Of a DNA stretch of 64,000 nucleotides, positions 1,438-4,400 are shown piece after piece. Source of the stretch: Amphiscolops sp. MND2022 (taxonomy: Eukaryota); assembly GCA_964187785.1 (NCBI GenBank), contig OZ076409.1, positions 53,198,001-53,262,000 on the forward strand, read 5' to 3'. The position numbers were made by a program, and so were the translations under genes. How positions within the stretch are numbered: position 1 is the first letter of the stretch; each line of letters opens with the position of its first letter. Under the pieces are notes generated by a model, which was not told the origin of the DNA, ran no database searches, and worked only from the letters and a program-made list of their open reading frames with translations.

Positions 1438-4400
1438 TTACTTGATATGATGATATACGAGAGGATCAGTATCTTTCTTCGACTTCTTCTTCGGAGTCGT
1501 CTTACTGCCACCAGCTTGAACATTAGATTTTTTCGTTTTCCCGACTTGCTTCACATCAGTGCTCTTTCCACCAACTTTACTTCCACCACTTTTCCCTTTT
1601 CCACTAGTAGAACTGGAACTACTCTGCACAACGGAACTGCTACGAGACCCCTGCTCTGCACGAGACAAACGATTGACCCGATTACACTCAGTATAATGCT
1701 CATCACTGGACTGCCGTCGCTTTGCCAAAAATTCCTTATACAGCTCGCAAAAAGCTGCAATAAATGAGTCCACGCCAGAATCACACAGATCTTTCCACAC
1801 ATAAAAATCAGAGCCAATATAGAAGAGCCCAGCATCGGAAACAGCATATCGAATTAAGCCCATCGTCGATTCAGTAAACAATGACTGCGGAGAATAACCG
1901 TCACTCAAAACATAGGATTGGACAACCCTACAGCACAAAAGCACACTCCCTTCAGCCTGCTTACAGCCAGCCAGATCAAGAGTAAATGGAGGACTAACAC
2001 GATTGGGCTCACCAACAAGCAAGCAACATAACTTGAAGACACGCAATACATGTCGTCGTGATTGAAACCCAAAATCATCCAGCAAATAACGACGAACGTC
2101 CGAAATAGAACCGGCAGAACGCTCCAATCGACTATGCTGCCTGCGTATCTCAATCACGTACGCGCTGTATTCATCCAGGGAGGTATTGCATTCCTCTCGG
2201 GATAAAGCGCCGCACCTCATCAGATCATCACACAGCTCAGAGAACAAATCAAACGCACATTTATCGTCACCCTCTAACCTCAGTTCAGGGCAGAAACTGC
2301 ACAGACCCTTCGACACAACGGAACGGGTGCCAGCGCTCTCTACTAACAAGAAGGCGAGACGATCGATAAATTCTCTGCAGCGACCACGAAACTTTGGCAT
2401 TTCACTTGACTTTGAGGATAGAAGAGACTTCCCATACTCACAGTGAGCCAAGAATTCCTCCACAGGTGCAACAGGGAAACTTGAAACCTTTTCCACGTTC
2501 ATGTACGCATCCCAATCGTGAATATCTGGGAGACTTGACAACTGGCGTGTCTTCATCAACAAGCAGTATATGAAATTGCACAATTCGCCATAGCCATGAA
2601 ACGCATAATCGCTGCGGCTCTGTCTCAATTTTGGCAAATGAATATGGAAAATATACAGCATCAATTGCAACAGTCCAAAACGATATGGCATCAGTCCGTC
2701 CGAGATCAGAGTTGAATCCATCCCTCTCAACTAAACAACAACACACAATAATCAAGCAGACGGGAAATAATAGACGATTAACAAAACGACCCCGAAGAAC
2801 CCTCAACAAAAAAAAAACCATACAACAAACTTACACTATCGGCTTGATCCTTCACATGAGGTAACCCAGTACACCGAATGAACAGACGAATCGAATGCCA
2901 CAGATCCACCAAATCAGTCAGAACCTCACGAAGATCCTGGAAGGCAACGAAACCTTGACGAATGGCCTTACGCAGCAACTTCTTGCCGTCTGTCCAGTCC
3001 TCATAGACAACGCTCTTCAGTCTTAAAATGACATAGTCCACCAAACTTGTCACCTCCACCATTCCAAAAACATCTTGATGTGCCTGGCGCACACACTGCA
3101 GGAACACCTCTCCGGAAAACTGTTGATGCACAATAAATCGCTTCCCATCAGTACGATTGTCCTCTATCACTCGAAGCAGCACCGGACTAGCACCGCTGAT
3201 ACAAAGAGGAAGACGCGCATTTTGCACACCGTGGACGAACTGCGCCAAAGGAACCAACTCAGATTTGGGCATAGGCTGATCCAAAACTTCCTGACCAATT
3301 CAGATTTTCCGTAGAGCATTGTCCAACCAGCACACAACAAAGCACCGTTCCACATCCGCGTCCTTCTCATAAAACAATGTGTATTCATTGCGTGTCCCGA
3401 CCGCACTGAGAACCAGACGCAACACCCGAGGAGCAAGACCACGACACAGCAAGGACTGAAACAATACGCAACTACCATGACTACAAAATCGTACTATTAC
3501 AGATCCCCCCCCAACAAAAATGAGACAAAGAGAGAAAACAAAAAGCTCATAAATCCAAAGGCCACACAAAATATGTAATATTCCTACTTACCACCGTCTC
3601 AGCACGACTCCAATTCAGCTGATATTCGGGCGCTCTCTCACCCAAAGAAGCACGAAAACACGCCCATAAACGTCGTAACAACGTGAATTCGCCGCCACTC
3701 CGGAGCCACTCACAGACAGATGAGATCATCGTCATAAATGGGACCTTCGAATCAACTTGAGCATGCTTAGGCACCAAAACTTCCGGAAAGGGAACCCCTC
3801 TGCTAAGTCCACAAAAGGCTGAGCTTTATACTCCGCAATCTGGTCGGGTGTTAGTTCCATAGGCTCTAACCATCTATTGTATACGGGCAACCCCGAATGC
3901 ACCCTGTAGCGCACATCACGAAACCAGTGCCCATCAGATGAGAAGTGACGTTTAAACTCGCCAGATCCTTGAGCTTTCATCCGCACATCTCGGTGGCACA
4001 CACGACAGAAGAAAAACGTAGGCTCCCCGCACTTAGGGCCACTGACAAAGTCGGAATATGCAGGATGCAAGGACAACATGCGTCTTTTTAAATGCTTGCG
4101 ATTCCCAAAAGTCCGCACTCGACGCTGACAACGATCTCAAATCTTCTTAGACAATTTCGTAAAACCTGCAAACAATAACAACACCATCAATAAATATGAC
4201 ACACAAAACTACGACTCCAAGGCCCCAACCAAACCTAAAGAACCCCCCATTCACTATGAGATACCAACGTACCTGTCACGATACTTTGTACTGCCCGAGT
4301 CTCTACCTCCGAAATCAAATGACGACCAAACTGCGCCAAATCAATGGGACTCAACGGAGTATTGCCGGGGAAAGCTAACACCTCCTCCTCCTCCTCCGCT

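Follow-up and report, generated by a model that had tools for sequence, protein, structure and literature searches.

A hAT transposase-like protein without a recognizable catalytic site, very probably captured as an antisense gene by a Ty3/Gypsy retrotransposon

The analysis of a 64,000-nucleotide stretch of the Amphiscolops sp. MND2022 genome (hereafter the window; G000:C1:53198001-53262000 of a 1.07-Gb assembly) detected a six-exon gene on the minus strand between pol and the 3' LTR of a Ty3/Gypsy retrotransposon, the product of which was very probably derived from a hAT transposase and stably captured by the retrotransposon. The gene does not belong to the active hAT transposons, and the catalytic site of its protein, as judged on the predicted structure of a relative, is gone.

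The antisense gene and its carrier element

Bases 1-8967 of the window corresponded to the 3' half of an LTR retrotransposon, which was assigned to Ty3/Gypsy by TG..CA LTRs, a PBS, a PPT, a short TSD, and gag followed by PR-RT-RH-IN, the latter genes being found in sister copies of the window element. A perfect 5-bp TSD was present in 13/13 full family copies checked. The window copy is an older one and no longer intact: its pol falls into two frames, 3-1085 and 791-1291 (a single frame in sister copies), an internal duplication is present, and the antisense gene itself is dead owing to two stops and one frameshift.

The alignment with seven other copies resolved the antisense gene into six coding exons from 5283 to 1438, comprising approximately 1,070 codons. 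The five introns (104-169 nt) were all bounded by GT..AG, and the phases were consistent but for one base missing in exon 4. The first-pass annotation, made from the window sequence alone, had given the extent as 1438..4118, which proved too short, as the gene runs on through three more exons to an ATG at 5283. The features of the region are as follows.

3-1291, plus strand: pol 3' end (integrase) of the host Ty3/Gypsy element, with Pfam rve and Integrase_p58_C; frame broken in the window copy
1438-2730, minus strand: exon 6, with 430 codons plus the stop, which encodes the hAT insertion domain, a long helix and the basic K/S tail
2835-3455, minus strand: exon 5, RNase H-like strands; in-frame stop at 3302-3300
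3592-4165, minus strand: exon 4, zinc finger and helical region ahead of the RNase H core; stop at 4139-4137, one-base frameshift near 3795
3927-4010, minus strand: C-x2-C-x16-H-x5-H zinc finger (putatively BED-like), ligands kept in 44, 43, 43 and 44 of 44 sequences
4273-4410, minus strand: exon 3, acidic stretch and short conserved helix; supported by AG/GT ends, intact frame and alignment conservation
4580-5044, minus strand: exon 2, low-complexity, S/P/A/E-rich, variable
5045-5156, minus strand: intron 1, possible hairpin; 91% mean column identity in 7 copies
5157-5283, minus strand: exon 1 (coding part), start codon, acidic
5284-5900, no strand assigned: region with CRE-like and CCAAT motifs that separates the antisense gene from the sense ORF; candidate two-way promoter
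5901-6743, plus strand: second accessory gene, 280 aa, low complexity, N-terminal SUMO-interaction-like motif; supported by dN/dS and conservation
6649-8967, plus strand: 3' LTR (TG...CA) containing the gag start; 97.2% identity to the 5' LTR upstream of the window
8968-8972, plus strand: 5-bp TSD of the retrotransposon; the identical 5 bases precede the 5' LTR

The motifs listed in the first-pass annotation were all located on the minus strand in the order given there: the zinc finger (4010-3927), SRAETV (3609-3592), SLLCRGLAP (3455-3429), EYTLFYE (3386-3366), RCFVVCW (3347-3327), VEVTSLVDYV (3059-3030), LTDLVDLWHSIRLFI (2921-2877), YRFGLLQLML (2685-2656), FRGRCREFI (2391-2365), and the K/S tail to the stop at 1440-1438. 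Exon 6 also contained a degenerate region for the third catalytic residue at 2022-1972. The C-terminal tail was basic, with a net charge of +13 over 70 residues, and exons 1-3 were acidic and of low complexity.

The antisense reading frame was far beyond chance. The last exon gave 129 matches among 128 scored candidates, with 6,968 candidates at first look; 105 of the matches had no internal stop, and hundreds of relatives were found in the genome, some of which are natural single frames of 862-918 aa covering the region of exons 4-6. The pieces of the window aligned in order to a profile of these single-frame relatives (positions 39-212, 213-411 and 421-791, with a junction at 212/213), and the exon structure was thus independently supported. 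A chance antisense frame was rejected on the 105 stop-free matches and the profile match to natural relatives. The finger exon was the most conserved between clades, with 32-39% identity versus 20-27% in the last exon.

Family members occupied the best 150 of 917 representative matches and the best 120 of 150 word-index matches. For two proteins of public assemblies, the best matches in the genome of the window showed just 36% and 53% identity, and the family therefore probably occurs in other genomes, as far as can be judged from sequence identity. No confirmed relative was detected in JGI metagenomes and viral contigs, and Rfam gave no match in window 1-9500.

Several minor observations were made on the element. 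The high column identity of intron 1 was found among seven copies whose coding synonymous sites are largely saturated. In the hairpin predicted for this intron, its two splice sites are paired and changes are better tolerated on the antisense strand; folding was not better than that of shuffles (z 0.22), and a two-sided change was seen in just 1/32 consensus pairs. The intron was partly deleted in the locus L029 and was not detected in clades other than that of the window. In the close sister copy L018:3003-5314, the exon 4-5 region was tandemly duplicated, with an internal deletion. The gag frame starts within the 2.3-kb LTR, of which it takes up approximately 380 bases (window 8589-8967; L014:4788-6197), so that the PBS lies inside gag. 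The LTR pair of the window differed by 28 transversions versus 16 transitions, whereas eight other pairs were about equal (58 versus 57); this excess of transversions was attributed either to an unusual mutation spectrum or to assembly error.

A hAT-like fold without the catalytic residues

For structure prediction, an intron-poor relative with a natural frame of 755 aa was used, on an alignment of 94 rows in which exons from the clade of the window were included; the modelled relative is 24-33% identical to the exons of that clade. The model (mean pLDDT 87) showed three strands, a helix, a strand and a helix, followed by a long helical insertion. Foldseek gave 11 matches at E<=0.001, of which the ten shown were all Hermes (best E 3.8e-5), additional chains of the same entries being left out of the count shown, and the next protein followed at E 0.048. 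In a VIA search over 48,161 chains, Hermes also came first, with 400 residues aligned (model 171-673 on Hermes 133-609) at an rmsd of 5.0 and a Z of 13.0; helical proteins can often reach a Z of about 13, but this match was well above the rest and spanned the core. The next protein was the ISCth4 transposase (Z 6.1), and a second VIA look gave Z 13.0-13.8 for six Hermes entries. When the last exon of the window was folded alone, Hermes was at rank 4 with a Z of 5.7 and the longest alignment (168 residues), weak by itself, and Foldseek gave no match with this exon. The Atlas neighbours were hAT, FAM200, ZBED5 and C17orf113 clusters at 0.90-0.93; the best named cluster shared 160 features, which is below the 170 usual within one family. 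The hAT transposase-like identity proposed in the first-pass annotation was thereby borne out, including a match to the hAT RNase H fold, at the level of the modelled structure and the Atlas clusters. Sequence searches remained silent: Pfam hAT families such as PF05699 matched neither the window frames nor any of 19 relatives or exons, nor the 27 members of alignment A2, and no hAT link was found among PDB sequences.

The finger had been called BED-like. Its four ligands are nearly invariant and their spacing is in keeping with this name, but Pfam zf-BED gave no match, the finger lies outside the structural alignment, and hhalign against 18 hAT pieces from the genome aligned only the finger, with a probability of 1.3% and E 0.041. 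The term is thus used here loosely, for ligand spacing, position and one weak profile alignment to hAT fingers.

The predicted protein has the zinc finger, helical region, RNase H-like core, helical insertion and C-terminal helix in the same order as Hermes and other hATs (PDB 8EDG, 4D1Q, 2BW3). It differs from them in about 10% identity, in the lack of D180, D248, R318, W319, E572 and CxxH and of TIRs with an 8-bp duplication, in the added acidic N-terminal exons and basic tail, and in being carried by an LTR retrotransposon.

The key residues of Hermes are given as D180, D248, E572 and R318/W319 (PMC6027215), and CxxH is described as a feature of active hATs in another paper (PMC4763223). 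The corresponding positions were mapped by secondary structure and by range end-points in Hermes numbering, not by residue-level superposition. With this mapping, Asp was found in 0/43 sequences at the D180 position and in 0/43 at the D248 position (7/43 and 5/43 one residue later). In the window, the D180 position falls at the end of EYTLFYE, that of D248 in ISGASP, and that of W319 on the second F of GFVAF; they are not D, D and W. ERxFS was found in 0/94 rows, CxxH and RW were absent from the corresponding regions, and the helix that bears E572 in Hermes is a coil in the model. The absence of the first catalytic D, CxxH, RW and ERxFS reported in the first-pass annotation was thus reproduced, and the inspection of the DDE positions found no intact DDE.

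Some residues near the mapped sites could suggest an unconventional nuclease or end-processing activity using shifted acidic residues. An acidic residue stands one position past the first catalytic site in 16/20 spliced-clade sequences, D or E occurs near the third site in 23/23 intron-poor sequences, and the W319 position is aromatic (Phe) in 38/43. These acidic residues, however, are not shared across clades, and neither the second Asp nor CxxH, R318 or the ERxFS helix is present, which makes such an activity highly improbable compared with a loss of catalysis.

Linkage to the retrotransposon, splicing and selection

The integrase was found upstream of the gene on the other strand in 43/44 spliced-clade loci, and pol was upstream in 10/10 intron-poor loci, nine of which had an LTR pair with 98.7-100% identity. 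Conversely, the antisense gene was present in 19/19 loci selected by integrase, consisting of 15 near-identical copies of one subfamily and four spot checks further down a list of 150. Position and strand of the gene are shared by three clades, although integrase divergence among them reaches 50%. In trees of 31 loci, integrase and gene fell into identical sets of three clades (Mantel rho 0.895, 0 of 999 permutations), but the within-clade trees disagreed, with 3/9 and 5/22 supported splits shared, the former being the integrase splits that recurred in the gene tree. Gene variants also reassorted freely with LTR and sense-ORF types. The agreement between clades together with the discordance within them indicates that the gene is old in the lineage and has been swapped as a module, and the free reassortment and the 3/9 shared splits indicate that finger and LTR are not locked to each other one to one.

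Splice sites were examined in 44 spliced-clade loci. The donor after exon 4 was GT in 41/42 loci where the motif was located, and the next two acceptors were AG in 37/37 and 38/39. The last intron of most relatives is precisely missing in the window copy at 2650/2649; it was present in 30 loci and precisely absent in eight with the same 120-nt spacing, six being unscored. The eight loci sit on two separate branches nested among intron-bearing relatives. Because of the antisense orientation, the introns cannot be spliced out of the genomic RNA and pass through its reverse transcription intact, so that their precise loss points to recombination with cDNA of the spliced antisense message.

The dN/dS values were 0.05-0.07 in the five unsaturated of 208 gene pairs. 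When the last exon of the window was compared with nine other copies, eight gave 0.10-0.26, and the closest copy gave 1.36 at a dS of 0.014, as expected for post-insertion decay. These sequence comparisons point to strong purifying selection on the antisense gene without catalytic residues.

An ordinary hAT transposon nested in one copy, or passively co-amplified, could be considered, as the genome does hold real hAT transposases: it contains several hAT families (L093-L112) that have long frames and in which the DDE, CxxH and RW motifs can be recognised, and among these no detectably close match to the captured gene was found. This explanation is barely credible, since a TIR with an 8-bp duplication bracketing the gene was found in 0/11 loci (shuffles gave one chance match in 33), position and strand are constant in the three clades despite the divergence of the integrases, and purifying selection is strong despite the absence of catalytic residues. 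The stable capture by a retrotransposon proposed in the first-pass annotation is accordingly upheld by the linkage, the three shared clades and the lack of TIR and TSD of the hAT type. An env-like third ORF was also rejected, as the gene is antisense and the best 19-residue hydropathy was 1.12 in the last exon and 0.43 in the sense ORF; one relative reached 1.76, in a segment that falls in a helix of the modelled fold.

Sense gene, possible function and comparison with known systems

The second accessory gene points away from the antisense gene across the common promoter-like region and overlaps both the polypurine tract and the first part of the 3' LTR, an arrangement that resembles the placement of retroviral nef. 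It was present in 17/23 spliced-clade loci and showed a dN/dS of 0.06-0.30 in the six measurable of ten pairs, and a different S/P-rich ORF takes its place in the intron-poor clade. Pfam gave no match to the sense ORF and Atlas no usable one. At the N-terminus of the sense ORF, serines and acidic residues come after a hydrophobic core, as in the loose pattern described for SUMO-interacting motifs (PMC12751080). In the region between the two genes, a CRE-like motif and at least two CCAAT motifs at similar spacing were found in 17/17 spliced-clade loci, a count taken without shuffle control, and five intron-poor loci had CCAAT but no CRE.

We tentatively favour, with slightly less than even confidence, that the antisense protein is a DNA-binding regulator sustaining the transcription of its own element by activation or counter-silencing. 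The gene would be transcribed from the internal promoter-like region and then spliced, and the basic tail would import the protein into the nucleus. DNA might be bound via the zinc finger and the adjacent helical region, the dead core serving as a scaffold. The protein would then act in trans and maintain the transcription of family copies in the face of chromatin silencing by the host, the acidic N-terminal exons being the presumed activating part, and the divergent sense gene with its SUMO-interaction-like motif is possibly the second half of the same counter-silencing module. Activation of cognate copies by transposases, and the derivation of TnpA from one, are reported in a preprint (bioRxiv 10.64898/2026.08.24.746577), and TnpA thereby offers a precedent for a regulator of transposase origin in which catalysis has been lost. 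The CpG observed/expected ratio of 0.99-1.19 showed no depletion, which argues against a VANC-like role versus DNA methylation, and the silencing opposed is probably not CpG methylation. The free reassortment described above argues against a private finger-LTR code.

The protein might instead act on host proteins, binding or sequestering silencing proteins or hAT-derived ZBED/FAM200-type factors rather than an element site. Such a counter-defence would agree with the deeply diverged gene variants (46-49% identity to the window exon) that ride on near-identical integrases, with synonymous sites more saturated in the gene than in the integrase (pS 0.81 versus 0.55), with the retention of the entire fold beyond the finger, and with the FAM200/ZBED5-like clusters among the Atlas neighbours. 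It appeared fairly unlikely, as dN/dS is low, pairwise rates carry no sign of an arms race, and the finger region is the most conserved part.

Negative autoregulation, in which the protein or the antisense RNA would restrain transcription and copy number of its own element, as has been proposed for the antisense genes of some retroviruses and plant elements, was judged unlikely. The antisense position and own promoter-like region do resemble those of Grande gene23 and the HTLV antisense genes (PMC7264820), and in one locus (L050 and L042) the gene is flanked by LTR-like sequences and lacks an integrase within 13 kb upstream. Against this, the family is very abundant and young, with LTR pairs 98.7-100% identical, and the acidic N-terminal exons would fit activation better. 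The locus without integrase is possibly a non-autonomous derivative.

A role in integration targeting, with the protein anchoring the integrase complex at selected sites in chromatin or DNA, would suit a DNA-binding finger joined to a fold to which DNA binding is native, and no chromodomain was found in the pol stretches scanned. This role is nevertheless distinctly unlikely: the 13 insertion sites had varied 5-bp duplications and none was nested directly in family sequence, and the integrase is nearly invariant whereas its supposed partner varies widely.

Within the favoured reading of a transcriptional regulator, a more specific picture may be proposed, although it must be considered doubtful. 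The element would be a stable class I/class II chimera, in which a captured and disarmed hAT and a SUMO-decoy protein are expressed from one internal promoter that works in two directions, the pair of genes forming a counter-silencing module that recombination swaps among copies. If true, the chimera would be the retrotransposon counterpart of TnpA/VANC and would explain the expansion of the family to a large share of the young insertions of the genome.

The position of the gene has precedents. The plant elements Retand, Grande and RIRE2 and the fungal Boty also have a conserved gene in antisense orientation at this place, between pol and the 3' LTR, in nearly all active copies (TRP28, gene23); it is driven by its own promoter, and a role in the nucleus has been proposed (PMC7264820, PMC11963269). 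The gene found here differs from Retand-type ORFs in showing no PF04195 match at E<=1 in Pfam scans, in its full-length hAT fold and multiple exons, and in being paired with a divergent sense gene. In the review of antisense extra ORFs, the Retand-type ORFs are described as being of unknown origin and without similarity to other TEs; an inserted transposon is named there as a possible origin, without sequence support, and origin and function are called unknown (PMC7264820). The 'transposase'-named Pfam domains PF20167 and PF04195 are reported in plant extra ORFs with unknown function (PMC11728184, PMC11963269). Third genes other than env between pol and the LTR, shared among retroelement types, also occur as ORF3 in LTR elements of bdelloid rotifers, but these are GDSL esterases, DEDDy exonucleases and env-like proteins, and the word 'transposase' is absent from the text of that paper (PMC5408684). 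Further extra ORFs are described in PMC5408684, PMC11728184 and PMC13547354. In the passages on extra ORFs in these sources, a complete hAT fold is not described.

With respect to function, Spm TnpA and VANDAL VANC offer a possible analogy as element-encoded factors that activate cognate copies. They serve DNA transposons, and TnpA reportedly arose from the transposase of its own element, whereas the antisense protein would be a class II enzyme in a class I element; CpG depletion was also not seen at the element carrying it. The host proteins ZBED, FAM200, GTF2IRD2 and C17orf113 share the hAT fold and finger and include the nearest named Atlas clusters. Host-domesticated hAT proteins of this kind are low-copy host genes; the antisense gene, in contrast, resides in hundreds of mobile copies and gave no Pfam match to those families.

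In a literature search of titles and abstract starts (Repbase and most subscription journals being outside its scope), no hAT-derived gene in an LTR retrotransposon was found, and the cross-class origin, newly readable from the modelled fold at a known position, reads as new. In contrast to the antisense extra ORFs of the review, the origin can here be read from the fold as a whole hAT transposase. The route from transposase to regulator, earlier described for host genes and for accessory proteins of DNA transposons, would thereby extend to capture by the other element class. Since numerous young copies have retained open frames, the function should be accessible to testing, and the precise intron losses offer a natural record of recombination with spliced antisense cDNA.

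Other sequences were noticed in the remainder of the window. A distant Gypsy-like gag-pol on the opposite strand (8968-10984, minus strand; DUF1759 and zinc knuckle) is the target into which the window element was inserted, and a further gag-like remnant lies at 24552-25067. A 153-aa frame without a significant Pfam match is located at 14013-14474 on the plus strand, and a 435-aa low-complexity frame at 53699-55006 on the minus strand. Long imperfect inverted repeats and a repeat family of approximately 410 bp occur at 28604-31397 and 37500-39850, which are probably DNA-transposon ends.
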